NCBI GenBank assembly: GCA_002412795.1
Contig: DHVS01000011.1
Span: forward strand, 19,824 to 83,823
From: a bacterium UBP2_UBA5202
Lineage (GTDB): Bacteria; Edwardsbacteria; AC1; EtOH8
Direction: 5' to 3'
DNA: 64,000 nucleotides
This document shows positions 2,537-29,461 of this stretch, piece by piece (position 1 is the stretch's first letter; every line of letters starts with the position of its first letter). The notes beneath the pieces were generated by a model. The model saw only the letters and a program-made list of their open reading frames with translations. It made no database searches and was not told the origin of the DNA. Both the position numbers and the translations under genes were made by a program.

Positions 2537-2597
2537 ACAAATATCATTCGGGTTTTCATTCTGACACAATTTATGATTTCATTTTAATAATTTATTA

Positions 2598-7857: not shown

Positions 7858-8523
7858 ATGAGAACGCTGGTGATCCACCCCAATGACTCAACCACTGATT
7901 TTCTGACTGATATCTATTCCGGCAAAAACTGGGAGGTCATAAGAGGTCCAATTAAGAAAGAAGAGCTTGCTGCTAGGATAGCAGACCACGACAGAATAGT
8001 TATGCTGGGACATGGCCTGCCCTCCGGACTAATCGGACACGGAGGCCTGGTAATTGACGAGTCCATGGCTCATCTGCTGCGGGGCAGGAAGTGCGTGTGC
8101 ATCTGGTGCAATGCCGACCAATATGTGTTGCGTCATGGTTTGTCTGGGTTTTACACCGGGATGTTCGTTTCCGAACCGGCCGAGGCCAGGTTGTTCGGCC
8201 TGCCGATTGACGCTGATCCGATTAAGGAGTCCAACCGGCTCTTTGCGGTAGCTGTCAGGGATTCAATTTTTAAGGAGAACATGCTGGAATTGACCAGGCA
8301 GGCCTATAACAGCAAGACCAACCCGGTGATTGATTACAACCGGAACAACTTGTACTCCAGGGATGCTTTGATCGAAGACTGGCAGGGGCCTGGTGGAGGC
8401 GCTGGCCACGATTATGAGATTGACCCTGTTGACAACCATGTGAACGACAAATCAATTGAACAAGCCCATGCAATCGGCAGTATTTTGAAAGTAGGGAAGA
8501 ATAAGTATGAGAAAAATCAGTGA
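7858..8523 (+). CDS. hypothetical protein, possibly a caspase-like His/Cys fold; first gene of the Hsp70-helicase operon
   Basis: AAAGGAG ribosome-binding site before the ATG at 7858. IVMLGHG...CVCIWCNAD spacing resembles a caspase/CHAT His-Gly and Cys dyad (weak). 3' end overlaps the next gene by 17 nt. Confidence 0.45.
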   Translation: MRTLVIHPNDSTTDFLTDIYSGKNWEVIRGPIKKEELAARIADHDRIVMLGHGLPSGLIGHGGLVIDESMAHLLRGRKCVCIWCNADQYVLRHGLSGFYTGMFVSEPAEARLFGLPIDADPIKESNRLFAVAVRDSIFKENMLELTRQAYNSKTNPVIDYNRNNLYSRDALIEDWQGPGGGAGHDYEIDPVDNHVNDKSIEQAHAIGSILKVGKNKYEKNQ

Positions 8524-10933
8524 TGCGTTCCACGCCCTTGTCGCATCCGGCCCGAAGACTCTTAAAGTCCCGGACCAACCGGTGCGGGTCATCGGCATCG
8601 ACCTGGGCACAACCAATTCCACCATTGCCGAGATAATATGGGACCCGGACCAGCCCGGTGAGGTCAAGCCCCGATGCGTGGAGGTAAGCCAGGAAACCAT
8701 GGCCGGGGATTATACTCATATACTGATCCCGTCCGCAGTGGCCTTGCACCAGAGCAAGGCTATCATCGGCGAGGGGGCCAAGCGTCTGTTCCCCCGCTCG
8801 GCCGAGCTGGGCCTGGAGTCTTACAAGGACATTTTTCTGGAATGCAAGAACGACATGGGCAATGACCGCACCTACCACCGGGCGCCCCAGGGTTATCGTT
8901 CCGCGGCCGAGATCGGCGGCCATGTCCTGAAGTTCCTGGCCGGAGCGGCGTCCCAGCAAGGAGGCATCCCAATTTCTCATACGGTGGTCACGGTACCGGC
9001 TTCGTTCCAGATCTCCCAGCGCCAGGACACCGTCAAGGCGGCCGAGCTAGCCGGAATCACCATCGCCAACGGCGACCTGCTGGACGAGCCCATTGCCGCC
9101 TTGTTTGACTATCTGGTGGCTTTTCCGGAGAAGGTGGCCGAGCATCTGACCGGAAAAAAGAACCTGGTTGTGTTCGATTTCGGGGGCGGCACTTGCGATG
9201 TGGCCGTATTCCAACTGGAACAGGCCGACCTCGGGGGCCGGATAGGCATTTCCCCGCTGGCGGTATCTCGCTACCATCGCCTGGGCGGAGGGGACATAGA
9301 CCGGGCCATTGTTCACCAGGTGCTGATACCCCAGCTGATCGAGCAGAACCGCCTGAACAGCTTCGATATCGGGTTTGAGGACCGAAAAAACAAGCTGGAA
9401 CCGGCCCTCTTGGGGGTGGCCGAAGCGCTCAAGATGGGACTTTGCGATGAGATCAGGACACTTATTAGTTTTGGCAAATACAAATCTTCTGACAAGACAA
9501 CGGTAATCAAGATCCAGCCAGGACTCCACACCTGTTATCTTAACCATGAAAAATGGGAGCTGCGTTCACCGGCATTGTCAGCCAAGCAGTTTGAAGACCT
9601 GCTGGTCCCGTTCCTGGACTCTGACCTGCTCTATGCCAGGGAGACCGAATACTTCCTGACTTGCTCGATATTTGCCCCCATCCAGGACGCCTTGGACCGC
9701 TGTGGGCTGGAGACGAAGGACGTGGGCCTGTGCCTTTTGGTGGGCGGCAGCTGCCTTATCCCGCAGGTGTCGGCGGCGGTCAGAAAATACTTTGACAAGG
9801 CAACCATTTTTCAGCATGACAACCCCGATGCCATTCAGGTGGCCGTGGCCAAGGGGGCGGCCTGCCACGCCCTTTCGCTGGCCCTCTATGGGCATGGTCT
9901 GTTCCAGGTAAAAGCCCAGGAGCCCATAAATGTCAGCACAGCCTCGGGTCCGGTCGAGATCATACCCAAGGGGGCCGCTCTGCCTTACCCGGCCGAGGGA
10001 TGGAACACATTCAAGGCGCTGACGGTGCCGTCGACATCAATTAAAGATCCAGTGGCCATGAAGGTGGAGATTACCGCCGGGCCCAAGGACGATGTACGCA
10101 TCCTTTTCAGCCAGACCTGGTTCATTCCTGCCCCGGTCAACCAGGGTGACAGGCTTATATTGAGCTACCGGTTGGACGGCAACCAGGTGTTCGATTTTAA
10201 GCTGCGTTTGGAAAGCGACCCCGAGGGTGAAGGATACGACGGCCAGATCCAGAATCCCCTGACCAATGTGGTCAATCCCAACAAGACCAGGATCCTGATC
10301 CAGCAGGACGAAGAGGAACTGAGGACCGGGTCGGTGCCCAAAAGACTGATTCCCAGCAAGATAGTGGAGATCGCCCAGAACTATGCCAAGATCAAGCAGT
10401 ACGAGAAGGCCATTTCCTATCTGCAGAGGGCCTTGAGGATGGGCGACAGCCCCGATCCAAATATTCTGAACCTGATGGGTATTTATAGCGGGCATATAGG
10501 TGACACCGCCCATGAGGAGAAATATTACCGGGAATCCGCTGCCCAAGGAGGCGGCTCGGCATCCTTGTTTAATCTGGCCTTGAGCCAGAAAGAGAGAGGC
10601 AAGAACCAGGAGGCCCTGAAGACAGTCGAAGAGGCTGTCGAGGAGGGAGCGGACGGTCCGACCATGACGCTGCAGTCCATGCTGCAGGAAAAGACCGGGG
10701 ACAAACGGGGTTCGGAAAAATCGATCAAGGAAGCCTTTGAATTGTTCCGCCCATTTTCGGCCATGACAGACTGGGAGCTGGGTTGGTATATCACAGCCTG
10801 CAAAATGTCCGGACGCGATTCCGACCAGGAGAAGGCCAAAAAGGAAATGAGCCGCCGGGGCCAAAAGGGTGATATGACCGGAGGGGCCGATGGGATGCTA
10901 CCGGGCCTTTCCGGGGACTTGGTCCGGCGATGA
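8507..10933 (+). CDS. Hsp70 (DnaK)-like actin-fold ATPase with C-terminal beta-sandwich and TPR-like extension
   Basis: IGIDLGTTNS (Hsp70 signature 1) and VVFDFGGGTCDVAV (signature 2 / phosphate-2) are present. Roughly 430 aa follow the ATPase core, ending in TPR-like helices. Stop overlaps the next start (ATGA). Confidence 0.8.
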   Translation: MRKISDAFHALVASGPKTLKVPDQPVRVIGIDLGTTNSTIAEIIWDPDQPGEVKPRCVEVSQETMAGDYTHILIPSAVALHQSKAIIGEGAKRLFPRSAELGLESYKDIFLECKNDMGNDRTYHRAPQGYRSAAEIGGHVLKFLAGAASQQGGIPISHTVVTVPASFQISQRQDTVKAAELAGITIANGDLLDEPIAALFDYLVAFPEKVAEHLTGKKNLVVFDFGGGTCDVAVFQLEQADLGGRIGISPLAVSRYHRLGGGDIDRAIVHQVLIPQLIEQNRLNSFDIGFEDRKNKLEPALLGVAEALKMGLCDEIRTLISFGKYKSSDKTTVIKIQPGLHTCYLNHEKWELRSPALSAKQFEDLLVPFLDSDLLYARETEYFLTCSIFAPIQDALDRCGLETKDVGLCLLVGGSCLIPQVSAAVRKYFDKATIFQHDNPDAIQVAVAKGAACHALSLALYGHGLFQVKAQEPINVSTASGPVEIIPKGAALPYPAEGWNTFKALTVPSTSIKDPVAMKVEITAGPKDDVRILFSQTWFIPAPVNQGDRLILSYRLDGNQVFDFKLRLESDPEGEGYDGQIQNPLTNVVNPNKTRILIQQDEEELRTGSVPKRLIPSKIVEIAQNYAKIKQYEKAISYLQRALRMGDSPDPNILNLMGIYSGHIGDTAHEEKYYRESAAQGGGSASLFNLALSQKERGKNQEALKTVEEAVEEGADGPTMTLQSMLQEKTGDKRGSEKSIKEAFELFRPFSAMTDWELGWYITACKMSGRDSDQEKAKKEMSRRGQKGDMTGGADGMLPGLSGDLVRR

Positions 10934-12186
10934 GCTGGCTTGTTCCCGAAAATGAGCTTACCCCCGAGCAATTGCGGGCCATCAGGCTGGGACCGGAGGA
11001 AAACCGGGCAATAGTTGGGGGCCCTGGTTCCGGCAAGACCCAGATCCTCTTGTACCGGGCACGGTTTCTCAAGGATAAGCACAGGATATTTCCGGCAAAA
11101 TTCAGGGTGCTGGTCTATACCAATGTACTTAAGGATTACATTCGCTCCGCCCTACCGCTTTTGGGGCTGCCGGACGAATGCGTGCTTACCTTCGACCATT
11201 GGTGCCGGTTGTTTTATGAGGAACACATCGGCCGGACGCTTCCCTGGGACGCTACACACAAAACGCCAGATTTTGCCGCAATACGGCAGGCGGTGGCTGC
11301 CTTGATCGAAAACCGTAAGGTCAAACTTCCCCTTTATGACTTCGTGCTGGTGGACGAGGGGCAGGACTTGGATATAGGGGTCTTCAACCTGCTATCGAAG
11401 ATCGCCAAGCATGTGACGGTCTGCCTGGATTCCAAACAGAAGATCTATGACACAGATTCCAACGAACAGAGCATACTTTCCGTACTGGGAATACAAAGGC
11501 GCAACATCAGCCTGATAGACGCTTTCAGGGTCTGCCCCTACCTGGTGCGTCTGGCCTCGGTGCTGATTCCAGAACAGGGAGAGAGGGATGCTTTCGTAAA
11601 CCAAGCCAGGACCGAACAGGTGGAAAGGCAAATGCCGTTCCTGTACTTGGCAGATTCATATGCCGATGAGAAGGAAAAGCTCTTTCAGATGATCCGCGAG
11701 CGCCAGCTTAAGAACGATTCCATAGCCATTTTGTTCCCCATCAACAAACAGGTCTTCGGATATGCCCAGGGCCTGAAGGAGGCCGGGATCGAGGTCGAGG
11801 TGCCTCAAAAGGGGAAGACCAAGGGTAAAATCCCCACCCATGATTTCGGAAGCAGCCGCCCCAAGCTGATGTCCTACCATAGCGCCAAGGGCCTAACATT
11901 TGATTCTGTGTTTATGCCGAGGCTTACATCCAGGGCCTTCGAATTTACTAGGCAAAGCCAAGAACGGATATCCAAACTGCTGTTCGTGGCCATTACCAGA
12001 GCCACCAAATGGGTGTTCATCTCGACAGATAAAAAGGATATGCTTGACGTTATCCGCGACAAGATGCTTCCGATGGAAAGCACAGGGCAAATCTTCGTCG
12101 GTCGCATGGGGCAAAATGTAAGGGGATCACAACCATCAAAAATCCCCGAAATTGAAACAGAAAACGACCCGCTGGATTTTTTATAA
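10930..12186 (+). CDS. minimal UvrD/PcrA-like SF1 helicase (P-loop NTPase)
   Basis: LTPEQLRAI (Q motif), GGPGSGKT (Walker A), VLVDEGQDL (motif II), MSYHSAKGLTFDSVFM (motif V), LFVAITRATKWVFIS (motif VI). Confidence 0.7.
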   Translation: MSWLVPENELTPEQLRAIRLGPEENRAIVGGPGSGKTQILLYRARFLKDKHRIFPAKFRVLVYTNVLKDYIRSALPLLGLPDECVLTFDHWCRLFYEEHIGRTLPWDATHKTPDFAAIRQAVAALIENRKVKLPLYDFVLVDEGQDLDIGVFNLLSKIAKHVTVCLDSKQKIYDTDSNEQSILSVLGIQRRNISLIDAFRVCPYLVRLASVLIPEQGERDAFVNQARTEQVERQMPFLYLADSYADEKEKLFQMIRERQLKNDSIAILFPINKQVFGYAQGLKEAGIEVEVPQKGKTKGKIPTHDFGSSRPKLMSYHSAKGLTFDSVFMPRLTSRAFEFTRQSQERISKLLFVAITRATKWVFISTDKKDMLDVIRDKMLPMESTGQIFVGRMGQNVRGSQPSKIPEIETENDPLDFL

Positions 12187-12376
12187 AGGTAAGTTGTATG
12201 TTATAAAGATTATGACCAACTTATCCGTGATTGAAAATGCAATAAGACCGTAGAATCAAGATCGCAGGTATAACTAAATAATAATGGCTTTCCGGGCTTT
12301 GGAGTAACATCCAGGGCCCGTTTTTGTCACCCCTTGGTGGTACAATATTAGAGAACTTTAAATAAGGGGTAACGCC

Positions 12377-12649
12377 ATGGAAAAGAAGAAGATGGTGCCC
12401 AAGGTTGTCCAAAAAAGGGAAAGCTTGCCGGGCATTAGCCAGGATACCGCTGTAATCGTCAATAATATCGCTTCAGAATACGATTATATCGCTAAATTGC
12501 TGGGGAAACCGGGGTCAGGCTGGACCTTGGAAAGACAGGCATTGAGACAAGCGGATGGCAAATCCTACGATTTAATTGATGTCGTTTTGAAGGATGGAAC
12601 CCGCCGCCGGTATTGGTTTGACATCACGTCATTCTTTGGAAAAACCTAA
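12377..12649 (+). CDS. hypothetical small protein
   Basis: ORF with a TGnTACAAT extended -10-like element upstream. Confidence 0.4.
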   Translation: MEKKKMVPKVVQKRESLPGISQDTAVIVNNIASEYDYIAKLLGKPGSGWTLERQALRQADGKSYDLIDVVLKDGTRRRYWFDITSFFGKT

Positions 12650-12664
12650 AAGGAAGGAGCCCTC

Positions 12665-13324
12665 ATGTTATCCCCGTTGAAAGAGTTTAGATGCGACCAT
12701 TGTACCGATACTATTAACGATCCAAGCCAGGGCTGGGTGGAGTGGCTGGATTTGGATGGTAAGTGCTCACAGTTTCGTATTGTGCACCGCAGAGAACATT
12801 CGCAGGCACTTAACGGATGTTGCGGGGCGGAGGGCAGAAAAGATTGGCCTTTTTATTTTATTGATGACGTTAGAGAACTTTATGGGGAGTATTGGCTGGC
12901 TACGGCGGGGAAACATCTTACCGAAGGGGCTGTGCCTGGTGGTGAATACCCAGCCGTAGGGCACGAGAAATTAGGCACCGAGAACATGAAATACTGGCGG
13001 GCATATCCCCTGGAGGATTACCTGGGTTTTAAGAGCATGGCCTTTTTGCGCCGAATATTGAAGTCTGGAGCCTATTGTCCAGGATCTCATACCAAGCCTG
13101 AAGGCCTTGATTTACAGGATTTGACACATTTTATATGCCGGTTGACCATACCCTACTACGAAGATATTCATTTACGGGTTTCACGGTTGGTATTTAGAGT
13201 TGGCTTATTACCTTTGTTGGTTAAAACGCTTGTTTGGGGCGATGAAGGCCGCGTAATTCGAATGCAACAAGTACCGGCAATTTTAAAAAGATTGTTCTGG
13301 AGGGAAGATGAAAAAGAAATCTAA
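12665..13324 (+). CDS. hypothetical protein (Cys/His-rich N-terminus)
   Basis: AAGGAGCC ribosome-binding site before the ATG. CDHC...H..H...CC motif. Confidence 0.45.
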   Translation: MLSPLKEFRCDHCTDTINDPSQGWVEWLDLDGKCSQFRIVHRREHSQALNGCCGAEGRKDWPFYFIDDVRELYGEYWLATAGKHLTEGAVPGGEYPAVGHEKLGTENMKYWRAYPLEDYLGFKSMAFLRRILKSGAYCPGSHTKPEGLDLQDLTHFICRLTIPYYEDIHLRVSRLVFRVGLLPLLVKTLVWGDEGRVIRMQQVPAILKRLFWREDEKEI

Positions 13325-13469
13325 AGCTAAACCAAAATCTGCCTTCGACCGGGATTATGTGGTCAAAGGTCAGAAGGCGGTCTACCGGGGTAAAAGCTCA
13401 GATATTAATATGGACAAATTGCTGAAGGAAATGAAGAAACGAGGCCTGAAGAAACTGGAATTTAACTAA
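13308..13469 (+). CDS. possible small lysine-rich ORF (53 aa), below the ORF-track threshold
   Basis: MKKKSKAKPKSAFDRDYVVKGQKAVYRGKSS...KKLEFN. GGAGGG 3 nt upstream. Overlaps the previous gene's end out of frame. Confidence 0.2.
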   Translation: MKKKSKAKPKSAFDRDYVVKGQKAVYRGKSSDINMDKLLKEMKKRGLKKLEFN

Positions 13470-13489
13470 CTTTGATAGAAGGGCTATTA

Positions 13490-14119
13490 ATGGGCAAGAT
13501 CAATTACCTGATCATAGACGAAACGGACCCGGCACACGAGTTTGAGTGCGAGGGTGATGTGATAGAAACATTTTTCTCCACCTCCAAAGCCTTTAACTTC
13601 AAGAAATGCAAGAAGCACATTCACTCTAAAACGGACTTGGAGGATTGGCTTAGGCGGGAGAAGACCCAGGCCTTCAATATCGTTCATTTAGCCGCCCATG
13701 GCCGGTACCGCCCAAAGAGTGGTACTGAATTGGATTATTCCGCCATCTACCGTCAGCGGGGAAGGAGCGAAAAGGAGATATTCCGGCCAGATACCATCGT
13801 TAGGGCTTGTCTGGAGGCCGACCTTTTGGTGTCTACCTGCTGTGAGACCTTCAACAACCATTTCCTGGGAGTGCTAAATGGGTATGGCGGTGTGGCTAAT
13901 TTTATCGCCCCGGCCGGGGATCCGTTCATTGGGGATACCATCGTTTTCTCGTTGATGCTTTACAATGGACTTATCCGGGAGGTGGGGTTCCTGCGGGGAA
14001 AGTTAAGCGATAAAGCCATCCGGGAAACGTTTAAGATCGCTCAGAAGGGCTATAAGGCCTACCAGGGCGAGGGTGATTTTAAGCTGTACAATTGGAAGAA
14101 GGATGCGGTCCATAATTGA
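13490..14119 (+). CDS. CHAT/caspase-like peptidase domain protein
   Basis: FNIVHLAAHG and LLVSTCCET match the His (hlxxHG) and Cys (LvvLSaC) catalytic-dyad motifs of the CHAT/caspase fold. The start could also be 13472. Confidence 0.55.
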   Translation: MGKINYLIIDETDPAHEFECEGDVIETFFSTSKAFNFKKCKKHIHSKTDLEDWLRREKTQAFNIVHLAAHGRYRPKSGTELDYSAIYRQRGRSEKEIFRPDTIVRACLEADLLVSTCCETFNNHFLGVLNGYGGVANFIAPAGDPFIGDTIVFSLMLYNGLIREVGFLRGKLSDKAIRETFKIAQKGYKAYQGEGDFKLYNWKKDAVHN

Positions 14120-14468
14120 ACAAGGATATATAGGAGTATATATGGGACACACCGGGATATTCAAATGCAACGTTTGCGGTCATAGCTTTAATGCCAGCGT
14201 TGGGGGAACCTTTTTAGTGAGCTGTTTCGTTGCGTGGTTTGCGACTAAACCAAGGCTATACCGTACGAGGATTCACCAATGTATTTGCATAAAATGATGG
14301 GGACGAAGCCACTTCCTTTGCCTACCCCAAAGGAAATAGGAGTTTGTTTGAAGTGCGGCGGGTAGTTAAATGAAGATATAGGACCCATGTGTCCCAAGTG
14401 CAAATCAAGATCGATAAAACGAGTAAAAGTGATTCTTTACTGCGATTAACCTTTTAATGGAGGACAAA

Positions 14469-15338
14469 ATGAAAAAGCCTGATTCGATCAAAGAAGTGGA
14501 TGCTCAAATACGCCCGCTATACAAGCAGAAGAAATACCGGGCTATAATCCCCCTGTTGGAAAAATTGATGAAGCTGCAGCCCGCTAAATCTGAACACTAT
14601 CACAACCGGGGTTACTGCTATCACGAGTTGGGGGATTACGTTCAGGCCGTTATAGACCTGGACCGTGCCATTGATCTTGACCCAAAGGACATCGACAACT
14701 ACAAGACCCGGGCCGAGGTATATTTTGACATGGACAAACTGACCTTGGCCATTGCCGACTATTCAAAGGTGATCAAAGCGGAGCCTAAAAACTATAGGAT
14801 GTTCAATAACCGGGGTATGGCTTATAATGCCTTGGGTGATTTTAAATCTGCTAAAAGAGATTTTCTTAATTCATTGCGGGTAAATCCGAAAAATGATACT
14901 GCATGGTCAAATTTAGGAATGGTTTATGCGGAAACTGGCAAGTGGAGAAAAGCCATGCGATGCCTTAATGAGGCTGTTAGTTTGGGTGGTAAGGAAAGAA
15001 TAAATTATGTTAATCGGGGTTATTATTATCAGTGCCGGCATAACTTTAAGAAGGCTTTGGCTGATTATGATAAAGCGGTTGAAGTGGCTCCGCATGAATA
15101 TGATGCATTGGGAAACAGGGCAACTTTACTAAGCGAAGCCGGACATTTGCAAGAGGCTCTTAGGGATGTAAATAAAGTATTAAGGCATTGTCCCGATAAT
15201 AGTATTGCACATTGGCACCGGGCCGAGATTAGGTTAAAATTGGGGCAGTATAAAAAAGCCGACCATGATATTGAAAAGTGGTTTCAATTGAATGGTAAGG
15301 GGCTTTCAAACTGGAGGTTTGAAATACGAAACGAATGA
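14469..15338 (+). CDS. TPR repeat protein
   Basis: Repeated 34-aa W/LG/Y..A..Y motifs. GGAGG ribosome-binding site before the ATG at 14469. Confidence 0.6.
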   Translation: MKKPDSIKEVDAQIRPLYKQKKYRAIIPLLEKLMKLQPAKSEHYHNRGYCYHELGDYVQAVIDLDRAIDLDPKDIDNYKTRAEVYFDMDKLTLAIADYSKVIKAEPKNYRMFNNRGMAYNALGDFKSAKRDFLNSLRVNPKNDTAWSNLGMVYAETGKWRKAMRCLNEAVSLGGKERINYVNRGYYYQCRHNFKKALADYDKAVEVAPHEYDALGNRATLLSEAGHLQEALRDVNKVLRHCPDNSIAHWHRAEIRLKLGQYKKADHDIEKWFQLNGKGLSNWRFEIRNE

Positions 15339-15476
15339 TTATACTTATTCCAGATCTAATGCTATTATTTCTTGACAATTCTATAGTAGGGTGATAATAT
15401 ATATTTGTTATTGAGGGATAAATTTCTAATCACTTGTCTTTAATGGAGATAGAAAAATATATTAGTGGGGGGTATC

Positions 15477-17051
15477 ATGCCGAAATCAAAAAGGACTGTT
15501 GTTGTTGGAGATGTTCATGGACAATTTGAATCTCTAATTCTTATTCTAAATCATGCGGGATTGATTACTGAAAAAGGTGATTGGGCTGGAAGTGAAGATA
15601 TATTTATTCAAATAGGTGACGTGATTGATAGGGGACCGGACTCGCTAGATTGCTATAATTATCTAAAACAAATTCAGAAACAAGCCCTAAAAAAGGGTGG
15701 GGCAGTAGTAAGATTATGCGGCAATCATGAGTTGAATTTATTGCAGGGGGACTATGGGGAAGCAAAAAAAGATATAAAAAATCCCGAGAAAGTTGCTGGA
15801 GCAATTAAGAAAGACGTTTTATCGGGAGATATAAAGGCTGCGCATACCGATGGTTGTTGGCTTTTCACTCATGCCGGACTTCGTTCAGAAGTTCGCAAAC
15901 TGTTGTTAAAAGAGATGGGCTCTAACGTAAAGGATGTTGATCTGGTGAAACTAGTCGGCTATATTAATGACCGTTTTGTCAGTTTGGTAAAAAAGGGCGA
16001 GCTGGAGGGTCATCCTTTGCTATGGGTCGATCCTAAACGCGGTGGCAATGATAAAGTAGGGGGTATTTTCTGGGGGGATTGGAGCCTCATATCGCCATCT
16101 GTCCAGGCGAATGAAATACCGCAGGTGTTTGGCCATACCCCGACCGGTAACAAGGAAATAAATGTTTCATTATATTCGGGATTGATCAATATTGATACCG
16201 GGTTGTGCTTTGGCGGTAATCTTTCATTTTTAGAAATAACAGCTGATGGAGTATTATTCCGTCATATGATGAAAAATAAGAAGTGGACCTCATCTAAAAT
16301 AGAAACAGAAATAAACAGGACACAAAGCATAAAAATGGACTCAAGAAAACCCAATAGATCATTGATTCCCAGAAGAAAAACAAAGGGACCAGAATGGAGC
16401 TGGTCATTAGGTGAAGTGAATACCTCTAAAGATCATTTCAAACTTAAATACTTTTCTTCATCGGAAGATCAGAATGGGCATTTAGTGGCGCTTATAGGAA
16501 AACCAGTTGGTCAGAATTTTACTGTAAAAATACTTGAAGGGGAAAAAAGCTTAAAGAACAACAAGATGGTTAAGGCTGCATTAAAGGAGATAGATTATTA
16601 TTTGATAAATAAGGGCGAAACTGATCCTTGGCGGTACGCAATATACCACTGCGGCACTTCGTCTAACCTCTATTCTGAAATACGTTGGATGTATTTTCCG
16701 ACTGATAAAGACTTAAAAGGCATTAAAAATGTTCAACCGATTTACTATGTAGACGTTTCCAATAGCGACAACAAATTTGTGGGGAGGTTTGTGTTTGATC
16801 CCCTTTCAAAAGCTATAGTTCAGGAAGATGTTACAGACAAAAAGATTATGGATTATTTTCAACAAAGTGAGGCATGGACACCCCAAGGCCCCGAGAGAGT
16901 TACCGCAACTCAAAATCCCATTAGGTGGCTTGAATTGTTGCATGTTGCAACCGGATCACAGGGGCCGTTTGTCAGCGATATTAAGAAAAAAGTGATTAGC
17001 TATAACCGTAATTTGAGAACAGAAAATATTAGCGATAGAGAAGATGAATAA
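15477..17051 (+). CDS. PPP-family metallophosphoesterase (Ser/Thr phosphatase-like) with C-terminal domain of unknown function
   Basis: GDVHG, GDVIDRGPDS and GNHE calcineurin-like phosphoesterase motifs. About 250 aa of uncharacterised C-terminus. Confidence 0.7.
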   Translation: MPKSKRTVVVGDVHGQFESLILILNHAGLITEKGDWAGSEDIFIQIGDVIDRGPDSLDCYNYLKQIQKQALKKGGAVVRLCGNHELNLLQGDYGEAKKDIKNPEKVAGAIKKDVLSGDIKAAHTDGCWLFTHAGLRSEVRKLLLKEMGSNVKDVDLVKLVGYINDRFVSLVKKGELEGHPLLWVDPKRGGNDKVGGIFWGDWSLISPSVQANEIPQVFGHTPTGNKEINVSLYSGLINIDTGLCFGGNLSFLEITADGVLFRHMMKNKKWTSSKIETEINRTQSIKMDSRKPNRSLIPRRKTKGPEWSWSLGEVNTSKDHFKLKYFSSSEDQNGHLVALIGKPVGQNFTVKILEGEKSLKNNKMVKAALKEIDYYLINKGETDPWRYAIYHCGTSSNLYSEIRWMYFPTDKDLKGIKNVQPIYYVDVSNSDNKFVGRFVFDPLSKAIVQEDVTDKKIMDYFQQSEAWTPQGPERVTATQNPIRWLELLHVATGSQGPFVSDIKKKVISYNRNLRTENISDREDE

Positions 17052-17110
17052 GTTACAACCGACAAAGTATTTTTCGGCGGCAGTGTGTTCTTAAAACAAC
17101 TCAATAGATA

Positions 17111-17140
17111 AAGCCGAGCATAACCGCCCGGCTTTTTGTC
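17111..17140 (+). terminator. putative rho-independent terminator
   Basis: AGCCGAGC...GCCCGGCT hairpin followed by TTTTTGT. Confidence 0.4.
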
Positions 17141-17392
17141 TCTCCTCTGGGCTATAGTCTATTGGAGAAAATCGGGGTGAGCCCGTGGAGGTTTGCGGTT
17201 GTTAGGGAATGACGGTTTTAACTCAACCCTTCGACTTAGAAACATTTCAATTATGTAGTACAAGATTGGGTTTTAAAAAGGCGGGCTGGTCTCAAGTTTT
17301 CACTTGTTTATTTACCTATTTTTGGTGTATTCTTAATAGTACGGCAAAATTAACAACCGGGATTAGCTTTAACGCAATAATATTGAACCATT

Positions 17393-20300
17393 ATGTCATT
17401 AGATCTTACATTCATCACCAACGAATCCGGCAAAGACCTACGTGACCGTTTTAATGTCTTGCTAGGTAAGGATACACGTTATTTCGATTGCCTCGTCGGT
17501 TATTTCTTCATCAGTGGGTTTTATAAACTATATCCTTCGCTCATCAAGACTGAAAAAATACGCATTCTCGTCGGTATTAAAACCGATACTGATATTTACG
17601 AGTTGATTCAGACAGCGAAGGCTCAACAGGAATTTGTTCTTGAGTCACATGCATACGTCCGGCAGCAACTGCCCGCTGAAATCCTAAGTGAGTTTCAGAG
17701 ATCTGGTGATAGCGTTGACATAGAGGATGGCGTTCGGAAATTTGTGGATTGGATTAAATCCGGTAAGCTGGAGGTCCGTGCCTATCCGTCAGAACGGGTT
17801 CATGCAAAGCTCTATATCATGACATTCCAGGAGGGTGACCGCGATAAAGGCCGCGTCATCACCGGATCGAGCAATTTCACTAAGGCAGGCTTGATAGACA
17901 ATTTGGAATTCAATGTCGAGTTAAAGAACCGCTCCGATTATGACTTCGCCATCCAGAAGTTTAACGAGCTTTGGGCCAAGTCTGTTGACGTGACTGAGGA
18001 TTACGTCACGACGATAGAAGTCAAATCACCATACGCCCAATTCACACCCTACGAACTATATTTAAAGTTCCTCTACGAGTACTTCCGTGGCGAACTCAAT
18101 TTGCCCGACGAAATCGAGGATATGTATGTGCCCACGGGTTTCAAGAAACTGAAATACCAGGAAGAGGCCGTGTTGAACGCACGGAAAGTGCTCGATGAAT
18201 ACGGCGGTGCGTTTCTGTCCGACGTGGTCGGTCTCGGTAAAACCTACATGTCTGCTTTGCTCGCCCAACACCTCAACGAGCCTTGTCTCGTCATCGCCCC
18301 ACCGCACCTGCTCGATGAGCACAATCCTGGATCGTGGCCGAATGTCTTCCGTGAATTTGGTGTCAGAGGCTTTTTGTGCGAATCCCTCGGCAAGCTAGAT
18401 TCCCTGCGGGACCGCGACCTTCAGAAGTTCACAACCGTCTTCATTGACGAATCGCACCGCTTCCGCACCGAAGATACACAGAGCTATGAGATGCTCGCAC
18501 AGATATGCCGTGGTAAGCGCGTCGTTTTGGTCTCGGCTACACCGTTAAACAACACACCGCAGGACATCCTGAGCCAGATCAAACTGTTCCAGCCTGGCAA
18601 AAATAGTACTATTCCCAACGTCCGCAATCTTGAAGCCTTCTTCGGTTCGCTCCGGCGGCGGCTCGAAGGACTAGACCGCCAACGCGACCATGAGGTCTAT
18701 TTCCGTACGGTACAGGAGAATGCCCGGCAGACCCGCGAGAAAATACTCAAGTTCTTGATGATCCGCCGTACCCGCACCGAGATCGAGCGATACTACGGCG
18801 AAGACTTAAAGAAACAAGGACTGAAGTTCCCGGAGGTCGTCAATCCCGAACCGCTTTTCTATAAGTTCAACAAGGTCGAGGCCGAAGTCTTCGATGAGAC
18901 GATCCGTTCGCTGACGCATGACTTTAAATATGCCCGCTATACTCCGTTGGCCTACTACAACGGGGAGCGCGATGAACAGGATGTTCAGAGCCAGCGCAAC
19001 CTCGCCAAGTTCATGAAAATCCTAACGGTTAAGCGGCTCGAAAGTAGTTTCACCGCGTTCCTGTCCACGCTTGGGCGCTTCATCCATACCTACGAGCGTG
19101 TCATCGCAGAGTTCCAGAAGGGCCACGTATTCATCAGCAAGAAACACATCGGAAAAATCTTTGAATTACTAGAATCGGACGATCAGGAGGGCATTGACCG
19201 GCTGTTAGAGGAAGACAAGGCCGAGAAACTGGCGGCTAAAGATTTTATGCCGACGTTTATCGCTGATCTAGAAAATGATTTGAAGGCGCTGAAATCCATT
19301 CGCAACCAGTGGAATAAAGTTACCCGCGACCCCAAGTGGGAATCGTTCCGGGGCATCCTCAAGAAATCGCCCTATATCAAGGACAGCAAGATCATTATTT
19401 TCAGCGAGTCAAAGGAAACCGCCGACTATCTCGCCGGTAAAATCCGCGACGAGGTCGAACCCAAAACCCTACTTTATACTGGCGAGTCGCTTCACAGCGT
19501 CCGCGAGGATGTTATCGCCAACTTTGATGCCAAGGCGTATCGGCCCAAGGACGATTACCGCATATTAGTCGCCACAGAAGTACTCGCCGAAGGCGTGAAT
19601 CTCCACCGTTCCAACGTTGTCATCAACTATGATATTCCATGGAATCCCACCCGCCTCATCCAGCGCGTGGGTCGCGTCAACCGTGTGGACACGAAGTTCG
19701 ACAAGATTCACACATACAACTTTTTCCCGACTGATGAGGGCAACGACCTCATCAAGCTCCGCGAAGCCGCCGAGGCGAAAATCCACGCTTTCATTCAAAT
19801 GCTCGGTGCGGATGCCCGTCTGCTGACCGAGGGCGAGGAAATCGTCTCGCACGACTTGTTCGCCCGGTGGAATTCCAAAAAGACAATAACCGGCGAGGAC
19901 GAGGCGGAGGAAACAGAACTCAAGTTTCTCACCGAAATCCGCGCTCTTCGGGACAAACAACCGGATTTGTTCGAACGCATCAAACGCCTACCCAAGAAAG
20001 CCCGCTCCACTCGCGTCTTGTTGGATGAACCGGCAGTCCAGAATCCCCCGGCGTTACTCACTTATTTCCGCCAAGGCAAGCTCGACAAATTCTTCCTCGG
20101 TACGTCCGGTAACCAACCTACCGTCGAACTGGACTTCATGACCGCCGCGAAAATCTTGAAGCCCACCGATCCCAAAGAACCTCGCCAATCCATCCCTCAC
20201 GAGTTCTACGATTTGCTCGATAAGAACAAGGCTACCTTTGTCATCGCCACCACCGCCGATGCTGAACAAACTTCTGCCACCCATCGCGGTAGCCCGAATG

Positions 20301-20608
20301 ACGCCTATATCTTAAAACGTCTTAAGGATAAAGCCGTCCGTCGCTGTCAGCAGTTCACCGAGGATGATGAGGAATTCGTCGTTAAAGTTATTCGACTCGT
20401 GGAAGATGGTTCGCTACCGAAAGCTACGGCCAAGAAGATCGCAGCCGCCTTGAAGAAGCCGGAAAATCTACCACCTCTCAAGGTCCTTGCCGTCCTGCGC
20501 CGTGACGTCAAGAACGAGTATTTCCAGACCAGCCCCGCAGCACACGCCAGCCAGTCGCTCACCCCTCGTGAAGTCATTCTTTCATCATATCTTGTTAAAC
20601 AGCCATGA
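17393..20608 (+). CDS. PLD-family (HKD) nuclease fused to SNF2/SF2 helicase - restriction subunit of a split Type ISP-like R-M system
   Basis: N-terminal HAKLYIM...GSSNFT HKD motif. Helicase DESHRFR (motif II), LVSATPLNN (motif III), QRVGRVNR (motif VI). Stop overlaps the MTase start (ATGA). Confidence 0.8.
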   Translation: MSLDLTFITNESGKDLRDRFNVLLGKDTRYFDCLVGYFFISGFYKLYPSLIKTEKIRILVGIKTDTDIYELIQTAKAQQEFVLESHAYVRQQLPAEILSEFQRSGDSVDIEDGVRKFVDWIKSGKLEVRAYPSERVHAKLYIMTFQEGDRDKGRVITGSSNFTKAGLIDNLEFNVELKNRSDYDFAIQKFNELWAKSVDVTEDYVTTIEVKSPYAQFTPYELYLKFLYEYFRGELNLPDEIEDMYVPTGFKKLKYQEEAVLNARKVLDEYGGAFLSDVVGLGKTYMSALLAQHLNEPCLVIAPPHLLDEHNPGSWPNVFREFGVRGFLCESLGKLDSLRDRDLQKFTTVFIDESHRFRTEDTQSYEMLAQICRGKRVVLVSATPLNNTPQDILSQIKLFQPGKNSTIPNVRNLEAFFGSLRRRLEGLDRQRDHEVYFRTVQENARQTREKILKFLMIRRTRTEIERYYGEDLKKQGLKFPEVVNPEPLFYKFNKVEAEVFDETIRSLTHDFKYARYTPLAYYNGERDEQDVQSQRNLAKFMKILTVKRLESSFTAFLSTLGRFIHTYERVIAEFQKGHVFISKKHIGKIFELLESDDQEGIDRLLEEDKAEKLAAKDFMPTFIADLENDLKALKSIRNQWNKVTRDPKWESFRGILKKSPYIKDSKIIIFSESKETADYLAGKIRDEVEPKTLLYTGESLHSVREDVIANFDAKAYRPKDDYRILVATEVLAEGVNLHRSNVVINYDIPWNPTRLIQRVGRVNRVDTKFDKIHTYNFFPTDEGNDLIKLREAAEAKIHAFIQMLGADARLLTEGEEIVSHDLFARWNSKKTITGEDEAEETELKFLTEIRALRDKQPDLFERIKRLPKKARSTRVLLDEPAVQNPPALLTYFRQGKLDKFFLGTSGNQPTVELDFMTAAKILKPTDPKEPRQSIPHEFYDLLDKNKATFVIATTADAEQTSATHRGSPNDAYILKRLKDKAVRRCQQFTEDDEEFVVKVIRLVEDGSLPKATAKKIAAALKKPENLPPLKVLAVLRRDVKNEYFQTSPAAHASQSLTPREVILSSYLVKQP

Positions 20609-23600
20609 ACACCCAACAAGCCCGTTCCCGCATTGCCGAAACATTTCCCCAGCCGTTCAACCGTACAAAGTTTCTCGAATTTACGCGTAACTTGCTGAAC
20701 AAGTTCGACGAGACCAAAGCGGTGCAGTGGAACGCCACCTACGTTAAGGACGCCTTTAAACCTCATGTCTCCCGGTTTGAGCGTCTCGGCACTTACACGT
20801 CGCCCGATAATGAAAAGCTTGACGTGCTGATCGTCCACCTGACCAACAAATCCAAGCTTGAGCGCACCCGAACCGCAATCCGCAACTTCGTCGCCGACCA
20901 TCTTAAAACACGCGACCAAAAGGATGCAGCCCTCGTCGCGTTTGTCTCCCCTACTGAACGGCAATGGCGCTTCTCCTATGTCAGGATGGAATATACTGCC
21001 GTCGAAACAGAGTCCGGCAAGGTTGGCGTCGAGACGCGCCTGACGCCTGCCCGTCGTTATTCCTACATCGTTGGCGAAGGCGAAAGTTGCCATACTGCTC
21101 AAACCCGCTTTCTCGCCTTGCTCCAGGATACCGAAAAAAATCCTACGCTGGCCCAACTTGAAGATTCTTTCAGCGTTGAAGCCGTCACCAAGGAATTCTT
21201 CAACCAATATGCCTCGTTGTTCGGCGACATTGAGGCTGCGCTCCAGAAGCTCGCTGCCAAAGATCCCGTGATCGGCAAGGAGTTCAAGACTAAGAAAGTT
21301 AGCACCGTAGACTTCGCCAAGAAGCTTCTGGGCCAGATTGTGTTCCTATATTTCCTGCAAAAGAAGGGCTGGCTTGGTGTGGCGAAGGGAAAGGATTGGG
21401 GCACTGGCCCGCATGATTTCCTGCGACGGCTAGTGGATCAATCATCTGATCAGGTACCCAATATAAATATCTTCAACGATATTCTCGAACCACTATTTTA
21501 CGATACGCTGGCCACCGATCGTGGGCATGAGGCGTTGTGCAAACATTATAAATGCCGCATCCCTTTCCTAAACGGCGGCCTATTCGAGCCGATTTGCGAT
21601 TACGACTGGCGCAAGACCCACATCAACTTGCCCAATAAGCTTTTCACCAATACCCAGCACAACGACGCCGGAGATATCGGTACGGGTGTCCTCGATGTGT
21701 TTGACCGCTACAACTTCACCGTCAACGAGGCAGAGCCGTTGGAAAAGGAAGTGGCCATCGACCCGGAAATGTTAGGCAAAGTCTTTGAAAACTTGATCGA
21801 GGAAAATCGCCGTAAAGGCCTCGGCTCGTTCTATACACCTCGCGAGATTGTCCATTACATGTGCCGGGTAAGTCTTATCAACTATCTCTACACCGCACTT
21901 AATGCTGATAAGGAAACCGTCCCACGTAAGGATGTCGAAATATTCATCCATCATGGAGAGCAAATCTCATATTACGAAGCCGTCGAGGCGCGGTCTGCTA
22001 TCAAAATGCCCAAGAGCATTGAACAGAACGCCCGAATGATTGACGAAAAGCTTTTCACCATTACCGTCTGCGATCCAGCCGTTGGATCGGGCGCGTATCC
22101 GGTGGGCATGATGGCGGAGATTGTCCGCGCGCGTTGCTCACTGACTCCCTACTTCAACGATGTTCACGACCGCACGCCTTACCACTTCAAACGCCACGCT
22201 ATTCAGAACTGCCTTTATGGCGTCGACATTGACCACGGCGCAGTAGAGATCGCCAAACTCCGTCTCTGGCTTTCGCTCGTTGTGGACGAGGAGGACGTGA
22301 AGCAGATCAAACCGCTGCCCAATCTTGATTACAAGATCGTAACTGGAAATTCGTTACTGGGGGTAGAGAAAACGCTGTTCAACGATCAGGCCTTCCGTCA
22401 GCTCGAAAAGTTGAAGCCTCTATTTTTTGATGAAACCGATCATGCACAGAAGGAGAAACTGAAGAAGAAAATCGGCGAATTGATCCACGAACTCACAAAC
22501 GGTAAGGAGATTTTTGATTTCGAGATCTATTTTTCCGAAGTGTTCCACTCCAAGCACGGATTCGATGTGCTGCTGGCAAACCCGCCCTACGTTGGGCAGA
22601 AGGGCAACAAAGAAATCTTTCAGGAAATCGCGCGGACAGATTTCGGGAAAAGATTCCATCAACGAAGAATGGACTTGTTCTATTATTTCATCCACCGTGC
22701 CTTGGATTTAGGCCACAGCCAAACGCAAATTGCTTTCATCACGACCAATTATTTCATTACGGCAACGTATGCCGACAAGCTCAGAAAAGATCTCTTTGAA
22801 CGGGCCACTTTTCGAAGCCTGATTAACTTCAATGAACTCCGCATCTTTGAATCTGCTCTTGGCCAGCATAACATGGTGTCTTTGTTTGAACGTGGCAAAG
22901 ACCCCGACGCCAGCGTGCTTACGGCCACCACCAAACGGGTCGGATTTGCGACGTCTTCTGTTCTGAATACGATTGTTTCAGGCCGTGATTCCGAAACTGA
23001 ATACCGGGAGGTGGGGCAACCCGACCTGTATCACGGCGAACAGCACTACATAACGCTTGTCGGTAGCAGTGGGTCGGTGCGTGACCCCAAAATGGCCATC
23101 TTGGAGAAAATGGCGCGAAACGGTAAGTTGCTCGGTACACTTTGCAGCGTGTTTCAGGGAATTGTCACGGGAGCAGACAAAGTTAGCCCAAAACACGTAT
23201 CTCGATTCGGGGTCAAGGCAACGCCGGGATCGGGAATATTTGTTCTGACTGAGGCTGAACTGCGGGCGTTAAGATTGGGAAAAAGGGAACTCCAATACAT
23301 TCGTCCTTGGTTCAAGAATTCTGACATCCGGCGCTATTGGTGTTCCGTGGACAATTCCTTTCACCTTATTTATCGGTCGAGCAAACACGATGAGGACGAT
23401 CTGCCAGACCTAAAGAAGCATTTCGAGCAATTCAAGATACTCTTGGTAAACAGGAATGTCCGTGCTGGCGAGGTGACGCTCCCGCAATACGATGATTTTG
23501 TTCGGGGCAAAGGGCACATTGATTATGTGATGATCGCTTCTGCCATGAAGGCAGGAAAGTATTGCTGCATCTCCTATGCTCGTGATGAAAAACTGTTTAA

Positions 23601-24012
23601 TGGCCCGAAAATTGTTTCGCCTCAACGCAGTCCCCAAAACACGTTTTGCTTCAATGACGTTCCTTGGTATGCAAGCGCAGATGTCTATTACATCACCACG
23701 AAAGACCCCTCGGTTTCGCTCAAATATGTTTTGGCACTGATAAATTCGCGGCTGTATTTTCTTTGGCTCTATTTGAAAGGGAAACGGAAAGGAGAAATGC
23801 TGGAGCTTTACCAAAAGCCTCTCTCGGAAATTCCGATAAAACACATCGCTTTCGATGAGCAGAAACCTTTCATCAAACTGGTTGACCGCATACTCACGGC
23901 GAAGCAGCGGGGTGCCGAGGCGGACACGAGAGCGATGGAGCGGGAGATAGACGAGTTGGTGTACCAGTTGTATGGGTTGAGCCAGGAAGAAATCAAAATT
24001 GTAGAGGGTTAA
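20605..24012 (+). CDS. Eco57I/PglX-like N6-adenine DNA methyltransferase (gamma class) with C-terminal target-recognition region
   Basis: FYTPREIV (motif X) and LLANPPYVG (NPPY motif IV). About 1135 aa, typical of PglX / type IIG / ISP methyltransferase-TRD proteins. Confidence 0.8.
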   Translation: MNTQQARSRIAETFPQPFNRTKFLEFTRNLLNKFDETKAVQWNATYVKDAFKPHVSRFERLGTYTSPDNEKLDVLIVHLTNKSKLERTRTAIRNFVADHLKTRDQKDAALVAFVSPTERQWRFSYVRMEYTAVETESGKVGVETRLTPARRYSYIVGEGESCHTAQTRFLALLQDTEKNPTLAQLEDSFSVEAVTKEFFNQYASLFGDIEAALQKLAAKDPVIGKEFKTKKVSTVDFAKKLLGQIVFLYFLQKKGWLGVAKGKDWGTGPHDFLRRLVDQSSDQVPNINIFNDILEPLFYDTLATDRGHEALCKHYKCRIPFLNGGLFEPICDYDWRKTHINLPNKLFTNTQHNDAGDIGTGVLDVFDRYNFTVNEAEPLEKEVAIDPEMLGKVFENLIEENRRKGLGSFYTPREIVHYMCRVSLINYLYTALNADKETVPRKDVEIFIHHGEQISYYEAVEARSAIKMPKSIEQNARMIDEKLFTITVCDPAVGSGAYPVGMMAEIVRARCSLTPYFNDVHDRTPYHFKRHAIQNCLYGVDIDHGAVEIAKLRLWLSLVVDEEDVKQIKPLPNLDYKIVTGNSLLGVEKTLFNDQAFRQLEKLKPLFFDETDHAQKEKLKKKIGELIHELTNGKEIFDFEIYFSEVFHSKHGFDVLLANPPYVGQKGNKEIFQEIARTDFGKRFHQRRMDLFYYFIHRALDLGHSQTQIAFITTNYFITATYADKLRKDLFERATFRSLINFNELRIFESALGQHNMVSLFERGKDPDASVLTATTKRVGFATSSVLNTIVSGRDSETEYREVGQPDLYHGEQHYITLVGSSGSVRDPKMAILEKMARNGKLLGTLCSVFQGIVTGADKVSPKHVSRFGVKATPGSGIFVLTEAELRALRLGKRELQYIRPWFKNSDIRRYWCSVDNSFHLIYRSSKHDEDDLPDLKKHFEQFKILLVNRNVRAGEVTLPQYDDFVRGKGHIDYVMIASAMKAGKYCCISYARDEKLFNGPKIVSPQRSPQNTFCFNDVPWYASADVYYITTKDPSVSLKYVLALINSRLYFLWLYLKGKRKGEMLELYQKPLSEIPIKHIAFDEQKPFIKLVDRILTAKQRGAEADTRAMEREIDELVYQLYGLSQEEIKIVEG

Positions 24013-24046
24013 CCCCACACCCCCACCCACAACCTGGAGCCAAACC

Positions 24047-29385: not shown

Positions 29386-29461
<76 letters not shown>

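Follow-up and report, generated by a model that had tools for sequence, protein, structure and literature searches.

The run of same-strand genes at positions 12,377 to 17,051 of a 64,000-nucleotide stretch of DNA (the window; contig DHVS01000011.1 of assembly GCA_002412795.1, from the bacterium UBP2_UBA5202) is best read, at a probability of roughly one half, as a 4.7-kb mosaic of separately acquired pieces. The first piece would be a reduced, 'split' module in which a minimal CHAT-type cysteine peptidase (g209) and a TPR protein are encoded by separate genes, and the second an autonomous phosphatase gene of the phage lambda NinI type. By sequence, neither piece appears to belong to the transcription unit of the Hsp70-TPR/UvrD pair that precedes the run, and judged by their context both are probably conflict-related.

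A sequence-only reading had listed five open reading frames (ORFs) in the run downstream of this Hsp70/helicase operon and had taken them for one module of signalling type. All five are present on the plus strand at the coordinates given there, but a 53-aa gene and a zinc-ribbon pseudogene had been overlooked, and these are the parts that best tie the protease to partners elsewhere. Three starts were refined, on the evidence of the sequence itself and of gene calls made independently on identical contigs: those of the protease (ATG 13490, 209 aa, with a GAAGGG ribosome-binding site), the TPR protein (ATG 14469, 289 aa, or ATG 14457, 293 aa) and the phosphatase (ATG 15477, 524 aa). The single module did not survive the comparison of neighbourhoods, in which the homologues do not co-occur as a set, and the signalling label had rested on the names of domains; the run contains neither a kinase nor a cyclase nor a nucleotide sensor. 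The ORFs of the run are intact and identical in about ten independent assemblies, and all six proteins lack hydrophobic segments. Scans of 12000-17500 found no Rfam family and no tandem-repeat array. The features are as follows.

12293-12320, plus strand: intrinsic-terminator hairpin followed by UUUUUG (consensus scan; 11 pairs, 7 of them G-C)
12377-12649, plus strand: g90, basic soluble orphan protein of 90 aa (ORF with an AAGGGG ribosome-binding site)
12665-13324, plus strand: g219, Cys/His-rich protein of 219 aa, member of an uncharacterised family of about 160 aa
13308-13469, plus strand: g53, very basic protein of 53 aa, pI 10.3 (gene callers; overlaps the end of g219)
13490-14119, plus strand: g209, stand-alone minimal CHAT/caspase-fold protein of 209 aa, putative cysteine peptidase
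14143-14450, plus strand: pseudogene of a 4xCxxC zinc-ribbon protein (colinearity and position)
14469-15338 (or from 14457), plus strand: soluble TPR protein of 289 (or 293) aa with about seven repeats (Pfam TPR_1)
15372-15400, plus strand: promoter-like site, TTGACA, 17 nt, TAATAT with an upstream TG (consensus scan, 10/12)
15477-16292, plus strand: PPP-family metallophosphatase domain, lambda NinI-like (Metallophos, phrog_246)
16263-17051, plus strand: near-orphan C-terminal domain of the phosphatase, 262 aa (no Pfam match)
17106-17137, plus strand: terminator-like hairpin followed by UUUUUG, 3' of the phosphatase gene

The minimal CHAT protein and its companions

At the level of predicted fold and catalytic dyad, the CHAT/caspase-like assignment of g209 holds. 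A search among 5.8 billion clusters gave a family of 13 members, and the two motifs in which an HG/C dyad had originally been recognised, VHLAAHG and LVSTCCE, are present, with H66, H70, G71, C117 and C118 invariant in 13 of 13 members. The AlphaFold2 (AF2) model built on the family alignment (pLDDT 65, pTM 0.70) places H70-G71 after strand 61-67 and C117 after strand 109-115. Its top Foldseek match in the PDB is the SAVED-CHAT chain 8tl0_C (E 3.4e-6, probability 1.0, TM 0.57), and further matches include GSU0716, Csx29 (8eey_B, 7y9x_B), MALT1, separase, caspase-4, DdvA and gingipain; the family profile found no match among PDB sequences even at E 10. Modelled in this way, g209 is a bare catalytic core without a sensor domain, and a putative peptidase. 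No family member was met in the IMG/VR scan, and tblastn with g209 gave no match in PLSDB or phage records.

The neighbours of the mini-CHAT gene were compared in six independent contexts, given here with the identity of each CHAT protein to g209.

Window (100%): g90, g219, g53, CHAT, zinc-ribbon pseudogene, TPR, phosphatase
L011 (91%): g219 orthologue (77%), g53 orthologue (92%) and CHAT beside infC; nothing else shared
L014 (76%), 5' part: AAA+ protein (ClpB-D2-like), 484-aa TPR-like protein, CHAT, g53 homologue
L014, 3' part: 142-aa zinc ribbon, TPR (48% to that of the window), RadC, further genes; integrase-bearing element
L268 (53%): AAA ATPase, 4-nt gap, CHAT, TPR, 131-aa multi-CxxC protein, P-loop protein
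L018/19 (52%): CHAT, with a TPR protein 2.7 kb on its 5' side and a 110-aa zinc-ribbon protein on its 3' side
L016 (54%): AbiEii pair nearby; TPR, zinc ribbon and ATPase all missing

In four of the six (window, L014, L018/19 and L268), a TPR gene is no more than 3 kb away from the CHAT gene, a zinc ribbon is found in four if the window pseudogene is counted, and an AAA+ ATPase stands upstream in two (L014 and L268). Among the other partners, g53 occurs in three contexts, g219 in two and the phosphatase in one, this genome being the only one in which the mini-CHAT family and the phosphatase meet. In relatives, the peptidase travels alongside a multi-CxxC zinc-ribbon protein and a TPR protein encoded apart from it, to which the fullest versions add an AAA+ ATPase. 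Such an arrangement may amount to a 'split' NTPase/TPR/CHAT conflict module, of which the window would hold a reduced form, joined to the phage-moron-family zinc-finger protein g219 and to the basic g53. The integrase-bearing element of L014 also encodes a CX5R-motif tyrosine/dual-specificity phosphatase (13555-14013 of that locus), with RadC and a DprA-like protein near the CHAT cassette.

The 338-nt 'gap' that separates the protease gene from the TPR gene contains a zinc-ribbon gene in decay. Four CxxC motifs (CNVC, CVVC, CLKC, CPKC) extend across three frames in the order and with the spacing found in the zinc ribbon L014_142 and in the N-terminal domain of the L033 protein; the lesions are one frameshift and two in-frame stops, and the location between CHAT and TPR genes is that seen in L014. 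Single alignments are weak (E 0.002-0.05), and the call depends on colinearity and position. The domain of L014_142, which stands alone beside mini-CHAT there and is decayed in the window, is homologous to the N-terminal domain of ZnR-ERCC4 nucleases (E 1e-11 to 1e-14). Proteins with the ERCC4 nuclease were also observed next to phosphatase homologues in Desulfobacterota-type metagenome-assembled genomes (L033 1176-2108, L035 3757-4686, L031 4725-5636 and L030 7389-7979), and those of L033, L035 and L031, not that of L030, carry an N-terminal 4xCxxC zinc ribbon. The intact gene that follows the pseudogene encodes, as had been proposed, a TPR protein, an assignment that is unambiguous by sequence (TPR_1, 135.9 bits, E 1.4e-40, six stretches; TPR_2, 124 bits). 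An orthologue with 48% identity lies three genes 3' of the CHAT gene in L014, and the TPR proteins adjoining the CHAT homologues of L268 and L018/19 are non-orthologous to it.

The 219-aa protein, correctly described before as Cys/His-rich (7 Cys, 8 His), matched no Pfam model, and neither did its family. An exhaustive HMMER search gave this family 122 representatives at E<=1e-3, which share an N-terminal CxxC...H...C element and a RRLTIPYYEEAR motif. Against a family profile built without it, g219 scores E 2.7e-30 with 127 of 160 positions covered; it is peculiar in a 45-aa insert and in the replacement of the last 35 profile positions, at the C-terminus. Two relatives occupy phage moron positions, each with a different, unrelated second gene: one in L265 adjoins the tape-measure gene, and one in the P2-like Bacillus phage vB_BpuM-ZY1 lies between tail-fibre/methylase genes and the sheath gene. 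For the model of g219 (pLDDT 69), the PDB offered no similar fold and BFVD a single weak one, that of a Gordonia phage protein. The small gene g53 has homologues in L011 (92% identity), 5' of the CHAT gene, and in L014 (63%), 3' of it; counting the window, three loci thus join it to mini-CHAT, one of them in swapped order. A derivation of g53 by frameshift from the C-terminus that g219 has lost was considered and rejected.

The spacing between g90, g219, g53 and g209 (15, -17 and 20 nt) points to a tight operon, in which g90 is the first gene and lies outside the conserved cassette. For g90 itself there was no significant match in Pfam, NCBIfam or PADLOC and no match in phage records; PHROG gave one weak match (E 0.009). 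PADLOC-DB v2.0 likewise gave no match for g219, g209 or the phosphatase, and the TPR protein drew generic TPR matches only. DNA homology between the window and L011 is limited to 12663-14101, a 1.4-kb g219-g53-g209 cassette that excludes g90 and that in L011 sits beside infC, an unrelated site. Compared with the L011 orthologues, dN/dS is 0.11 for g219, 0.16 for g53 and 0.03 for g209; the three genes are under strong purifying selection and are more than chance ORFs. Within the cassette, 13385-13505 (from the 3' half of g53 across the spacer into the first codons of g209) has 95-98% nucleotide identity to L011 with flanks at 70-88%, and synonymous divergence in g53 is unusually low (pS 0.24 versus 0.64-0.69). 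This peak may reflect a constraint at the level of RNA or translational coupling, or a recent gene conversion.

These data also bear on the very unlikely reading that the run is a decaying remnant without current function. The loss of the zinc-ribbon partner to mutation, the missing adjacent AAA+ gene, the 35 family positions absent from the g219 C-terminus and the orphan tail of the phosphatase would all fit decay. They are set against the purifying selection on the three cassette genes, the intact catalytic residues of both protease and phosphatase, and ORFs that are undamaged and identical across the assemblies. The first piece is better described as a tight operon that would comprise g90, g219, g53, g209, the decayed zinc-ribbon gene and the intact TPR gene, with the minimal CHAT-type cysteine peptidase as its putative core.

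A probably autonomous NinI-like phosphatase gene

The assignment of the last gene to the PPP phosphatases, made earlier as a calcineurin-like phosphoesterase, is solid by sequence. The protein scores 45 bits against Pfam Metallophos (cutoff 21.5) and E 8.5e-26 over residues 2-277 against phrog_246, 'NinI-like serine-threonine phosphatase'; ApaH, PrpA and a PPP tyrosine phosphatase from Shewanella are matched as well. The domain is complete over the N-terminal ~270 aa, and GDVHG (11), GDVIDRG (47), GNHE (82), H132 and GHTP (219)/H220 are invariant in 21 homologues. Equivalog scores are far lower than their cutoffs (ApaH, 51 bits versus 176; PrpA, 41.5 versus 326), and because no match to NinI, ApaH or PrpA reaches equivalog level, a protein and a nucleotide are both possible as substrate class. 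Most of the 176 homologues are stand-alone proteins of ~290 aa, and a few carry unrelated N- or C-terminal domains; the phosphatase belongs to a distinct subfamily of environmental anaerobes.

The tail of 262 aa is, as had been noted, of no known family. One partial relative was found among the 5.8 billion clusters, P0134, with 40% identity over ~100 aa and the common motif DPWRYAxYHCGTSSNxYS. The extra domains of other fused family members have no Pfam match; a relationship between them and the tail was rejected, as they proved unrelated on comparison. Unannotated extra domains are N-terminal in P0017, P0018 and P0064 and C-terminal in P0035. One such domain, with the motif GHGLNSY/H, is N-terminal in some phosphatase-family proteins and C-terminal in another, and its occurrence at either protein end suggests that domains have been shuffled while the PPP core stayed constant. 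The relaxase-bearing contig of the fused phosphatase P0035 also encodes, three genes away, a PTP-ADP-ribosylglycohydrolase fusion, and several 'eraser' enzymes cluster both on this contig and in the L014 element.

The neighbourhoods of the phosphatase argue for its autonomy. A census of 80 genome loci from many phyla, with 10-kb flanks, found none with g90, g219, g53, g209 or Hsp70/UvrD within 10 kb. The neighbours vary and include housekeeping genes, with low-frequency recurrence of GmrSD, WYL/WCX regulators, ERCC4, HEPN, RecB-like nucleases and WD40-caspases. A specific association with TPR genes was considered and rejected, TPR neighbours being present in ~6/81 loci, near background and non-orthologous. 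In L029, from a Syntrophaceae metagenome-assembled genome, two tandem paralogous WD40-caspase (Peptidase_C14-like) proteins of ~810 aa (8233-13272) lie directly 3' of the phosphatase homologue. The promoter-like site at 15372-15400 is 77 nt before the phosphatase start; it is suggestive only, because the region has just as many such sites as expected by chance. The hairpin at 17106-17137 folds at -14.4 kcal/mol (z = -3.0; 3/200 shuffles fold as well). The second piece would be a lambda-NinI-like PPP phosphatase gene that is self-contained, having a promoter-like site and a terminator to itself; the product would act independently, with a tail that probably supplies target specificity.

The NinI-like character of the phosphatase, of a type known from phage lambda, also raises the reading that the genes of the run are mobile-element cargo for counter-defence or establishment and not host defence, the phosphatase reversing host phosphorylation or hydrolysing signalling nucleotides and the protease cleaving host immune proteins; we regard this, roles included, as unlikely. 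It would be in keeping with the fused relative beside relaxase and KorB genes on a plasmid-like contig, near the PTP/ADP-ribosylglycohydrolase protein, with the L014 CHAT cassette in an integrase-bearing element among RadC, the DprA-like protein and the CX5R-motif phosphatase, with the g219 relatives in phage genomes and with the ADP-ribosylglycohydrolase in the island of the window. The viral and plasmid data point the other way: the IMG/VR scan met only distant NinI-type phosphatases (~25% identity), the close subfamily was absent from it, tblastn with the phosphatase domain found no match in PLSDB or phage records, and the CHAT family is missing from IMG/VR and PLSDB too. Moreover, moron sites of phages, the P2 hotspots among them, are themselves known reservoirs of defence genes, and the recurrent phosphatase neighbours (GmrSD, WYL regulators, HEPN, caspases) are of defence type.

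The island and the upstream Hsp70-TPR/UvrD pair

The setting fits an integrated, tRNA-Met-linked defence island, in agreement with the earlier view that the genes are not housekeeping and lie inside such an element. The island extends over the initial 29.4 kb of the window, has a mosaic GC content (35-60%) and ends where an integrase gene (28314-29372) abuts tRNA-Met (29386-29461); an att repeat of the tRNA-Met was not found inside the window. To the right follow the housekeeping genes of an ABC-F protein, MsbA-like transporters, YgiQ and CCA-adding enzyme. To the left of the integrase are defence genes (HEPN/Abi_C, GmrSD_N, SIR2-like, PLD-SNF2 helicase and a type IIG restriction-modification (R-M) enzyme), and the island also holds the Hsp70-TPR and UvrD pair, an ADP-ribosylglycohydrolase and a radical SAM protein. 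Another same-strand block, HEPN/Abi_C, GmrSD_N and SIR2-like, occupies its left end (1733-5299, GC 35%); no C-terminal nuclease domain was detected in the GmrSD_N (DUF262) protein, and the SIR2-like protein, whose gene overlaps, is a weak match. At 17393-24850, the PLD-SNF2 helicase (1071 aa; PADLOC 'HKD+Snf2', E 1e-44) overlaps the type IIG enzyme (1135 aa, E 1.7e-231), and the ADP-ribosylglycohydrolase follows. In L104, a SNF2 and type IIG pair likewise accompanies the Hsp70/UvrD pair.

The Hsp70-like ATPase of that pair (7858-12186) has 808 aa and carries a TPR region at its C-terminus, and its gene overlaps that of a UvrD-family helicase (418 aa). The pair is kept at 39-51% identity in four loci, namely the window, L021 (12479-16128), L104 (8063-11666) and L269 (4434-6915), at least three of which have defence-type surroundings (SNF2 helicases, type IIG R-M, GmrSD, integrase), the flank of L269 being short. 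PADLOC v2.0 has no model for the Hsp70-TPR protein, and the pair is a candidate uncatalogued system. A metagenome scan with the Hsp70 alignment was swamped by DnaK/HscA (search pattern GIDLGTTN), with L104 as the sole true relative; the IMG/VR scan gave one extra Hsp70-TPR locus, and tblastn with the C-terminal half of Hsp70 found no match in PLSDB or phage records. In front of the Hsp70 gene, and overlapping its start by 17 nt, lies the gene of a 221-aa protein without family match (7858-8523), which carries a caspase-like-looking 'IVMLGHG ... CVCIWCNADQ' pattern. Kinship with g209, which also has an HG...C arrangement, was considered and no similarity was detected; the protein has no homologue in front of Hsp70 in L021, L104 or L269.

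Between this operon and the run, the hairpin at 12293-12320 folds at -22.9 kcal/mol (z = -3.8; 0/200 shuffles fold as well), and GC falls there from 52-60% to 42-47%. The terminator and the drop in GC would separate the run from the Hsp70/UvrD operon and argue against co-transcription. They count, with the neighbourhoods, against membership of the run in the upstream system, one of two options that had been left open earlier; the other, separate mini-systems, fits better. One large multi-gene system from g90 to the phosphatase together with Hsp70/UvrD would account for the shared strand and immediate adjacency, and for L021, where a phosphatase and a TPR gene occur together with Hsp70/UvrD. 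It is largely refuted by the neighbourhood data and has very little probability left: the strong terminator and compositional break lie at 12.3 kb, homologues of g219, g53, g209 and the TPR gene occur in five other loci without Hsp70/UvrD, and the three other Hsp70/UvrD loci are without g219, g53, g209 or an orthologue of the TPR gene. Orthologues of g90 are likewise absent from these three, and the TPR protein of L021 is non-orthologous to that of the window.

The locus L021 carries most of the case for a narrower link, in which the phosphatase, alone or with the TPR protein, is an accessory of Hsp70-TPR/UvrD and the CHAT operon was inserted later between them. There, a phosphatase (45% identity) with a TPR gene directly after it lies 3.6 kb from Hsp70-TPR (51%) and UvrD (47%). 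The similar divergence of the three genes fits long co-inheritance, the phosphatase and Hsp70-TPR families are both rare, and other gene types common to the L021 island (GmrSD, SNF2) are non-orthologous. The phosphatase is found in this one of the three other Hsp70/UvrD loci, and L104 and L269 lack it in the sequence at hand. Further, L021 was found via the phosphatase and is a biased sample, the 80-locus census gave no Hsp70/UvrD within 10 kb, and in the window the phosphatase gene comes with a separate promoter-like site and terminator and lies 3.3 kb and one terminator away from UvrD. We consider an accessory role improbable, and the mosaic of separately acquired pieces the better account of the run.

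Weighing, proposed mechanism and known systems

Several observations weigh against the mosaic of a split TPR-CHAT module and an autonomous phosphatase. On the side of the protease, the Pfam CHAT model (PF12770) gives g209 12.7 bits with a cutoff of 24 (E 0.087), below the gathering threshold, and weak matches in 6 of the 13 family members (best E 0.013), and the structural model of g209 is moderately confident at pLDDT 65. The pattern of partners comes from six independent CHAT contexts in all, two of which (L011 and L016) have no TPR, zinc-ribbon or ATPase partner. With its zinc-ribbon partner a pseudogene and no adjacent AAA+ gene, the window module may be incomplete or inactive. The linkage of g53 and g219 to the CHAT gene may reflect recent history rather than function, because the two accompany CHAT only in close relatives (at least 76% and at least 91% identity, respectively). 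As regards the separateness of the pieces, the folding scan found no terminator between the TPR and phosphatase genes, and the pieces may not be fully independent, given the zinc-ribbon family beside phosphatase homologues (L031, L033, L035) and the joint occurrence of phosphatase, TPR and Hsp70/UvrD in L021.

A mechanism can be proposed for the mosaic by drawing on the Csx29, SAVED-CHAT and STAND-caspase families (PMC9729208, PMC10028731, PMC7159879). The TPR protein, and possibly g219, would bind a trigger such as a phage protein; the trigger-bound sensor would license the g209 peptidase; and g209 would cleave a target (g53, or a protein of the host or of a phage), leading to growth arrest or to a response being switched on. 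The analysis itself shows that the genes are real and gives their folds, motifs, selection, the limits of the cassette and the statistics of the neighbourhoods; the protease activity, the order of activation, the substrates and any anti-phage role are inferred by analogy. A bolder proposal sees in mini-CHAT, separate TPR protein, 4xCxxC zinc ribbon and AAA+ ATPase a rare, undescribed protease-based immune system, whose window version has been re-wired, with g219 and g53 (a candidate substrate or inhibitor) replacing lost parts, and with which the phosphatase and Hsp70-TPR/UvrD co-evolve as a loosely coupled super-module. Taken jointly, these claims strike us as quite unlikely.

CHAT/caspase-like proteases are emerging as switches of bacterial immunity, as in Craspase, SAVED-CHAT and gasdermin activation, and to our knowledge every such switch studied has the protease fused to its sensor. 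A literature search returned only fused TPR-CHAT, SAVED-CHAT and the DdvA anti-sigma factor, with no split mini-CHAT arrangement, and the split TPR and CHAT arrangement is probably partly new. If real, a 209-aa CHAT core with separate TPR, zinc-ribbon and AAA+ partners would be a minimal, dissectable switch, and the split set would add candidate proteins for anti-phage screens. The analysis also flags residents of defence islands: the g219-like moron-slot family (at least 122 clusters), NinI-like phosphatases with swappable domains, and the Hsp70-TPR/UvrD pair. Should the run be inert or unrelated to conflict, it would illustrate that genes adjacent on one strand of an island need not form a system.

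Among known systems, the TPR-CHAT protein Csx29 of the type III-E CRISPR Craspase is alike in combining a CHAT-fold cysteine peptidase with TPR, and is itself among the fold matches of g209. In Csx29, however, the two are fused in ~700-750 aa, whereas the window has separate genes of 209 aa and 289 aa. Craspase further has Cas7-11 (gRAMP) and a CRISPR array. The run differs in this, with no Csx30/31 nearby either; neither Pfam nor PADLOC, run on the flanking genes, brought up cas genes, and 12000-17500 contains no repeat array. Nor do the partners match those of Craspase: they are a zinc ribbon, the basic protein g53 of 53 aa and, among relatives, an AAA+ ATPase. SAVED-CHAT, from a type III-B CRISPR/CBASS-like protease cascade (PDB 8tl0), is the best structural match of g209 and shares the context of its His/Cys dyad, but it has an N-terminal SAVED sensor, whereas g209 is all caspase-like core with no SAVED match; sequence identity is 15%, and no cyclase or system producing cyclic oligoadenylate (cOA) adjoins g209.

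Systems of a STAND-type NTPase, TPR and caspase/CHAT (Kaur et al. 2020, PMC7159879) share the combination of ATPase, repeat sensor and protease effector in variable islands, and the order in L014 and L268, AAA+, (TPR), CHAT, TPR, zinc ribbon, resembles their logic. They are one giant protein, whereas here the parts are separate small polypeptides, the ATPase is a classical AAA+/ClpB-D2 protein, not one of the STAND type, and the window copy has none. The g219-family slots resemble the two-gene morons of P2-like phage hotspots (Rousset et al. 2022, PMC9122126), the family's moron genes in vB_BpuM-ZY1 and L265 lying on the opposite strand between tail genes with a differing second gene. In contrast, g219 of the window is partnered with the g53/CHAT pair, and its host element is an integrase island and not a phage. 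Similarly, the phosphatase has every PPP signature motif in common with lambda NinI, PrpA/PrpB and ApaH and differs from them in falling far below equivalog cutoffs, in forming a distinct subfamily and in carrying a near-orphan C-terminal domain of 260 aa.

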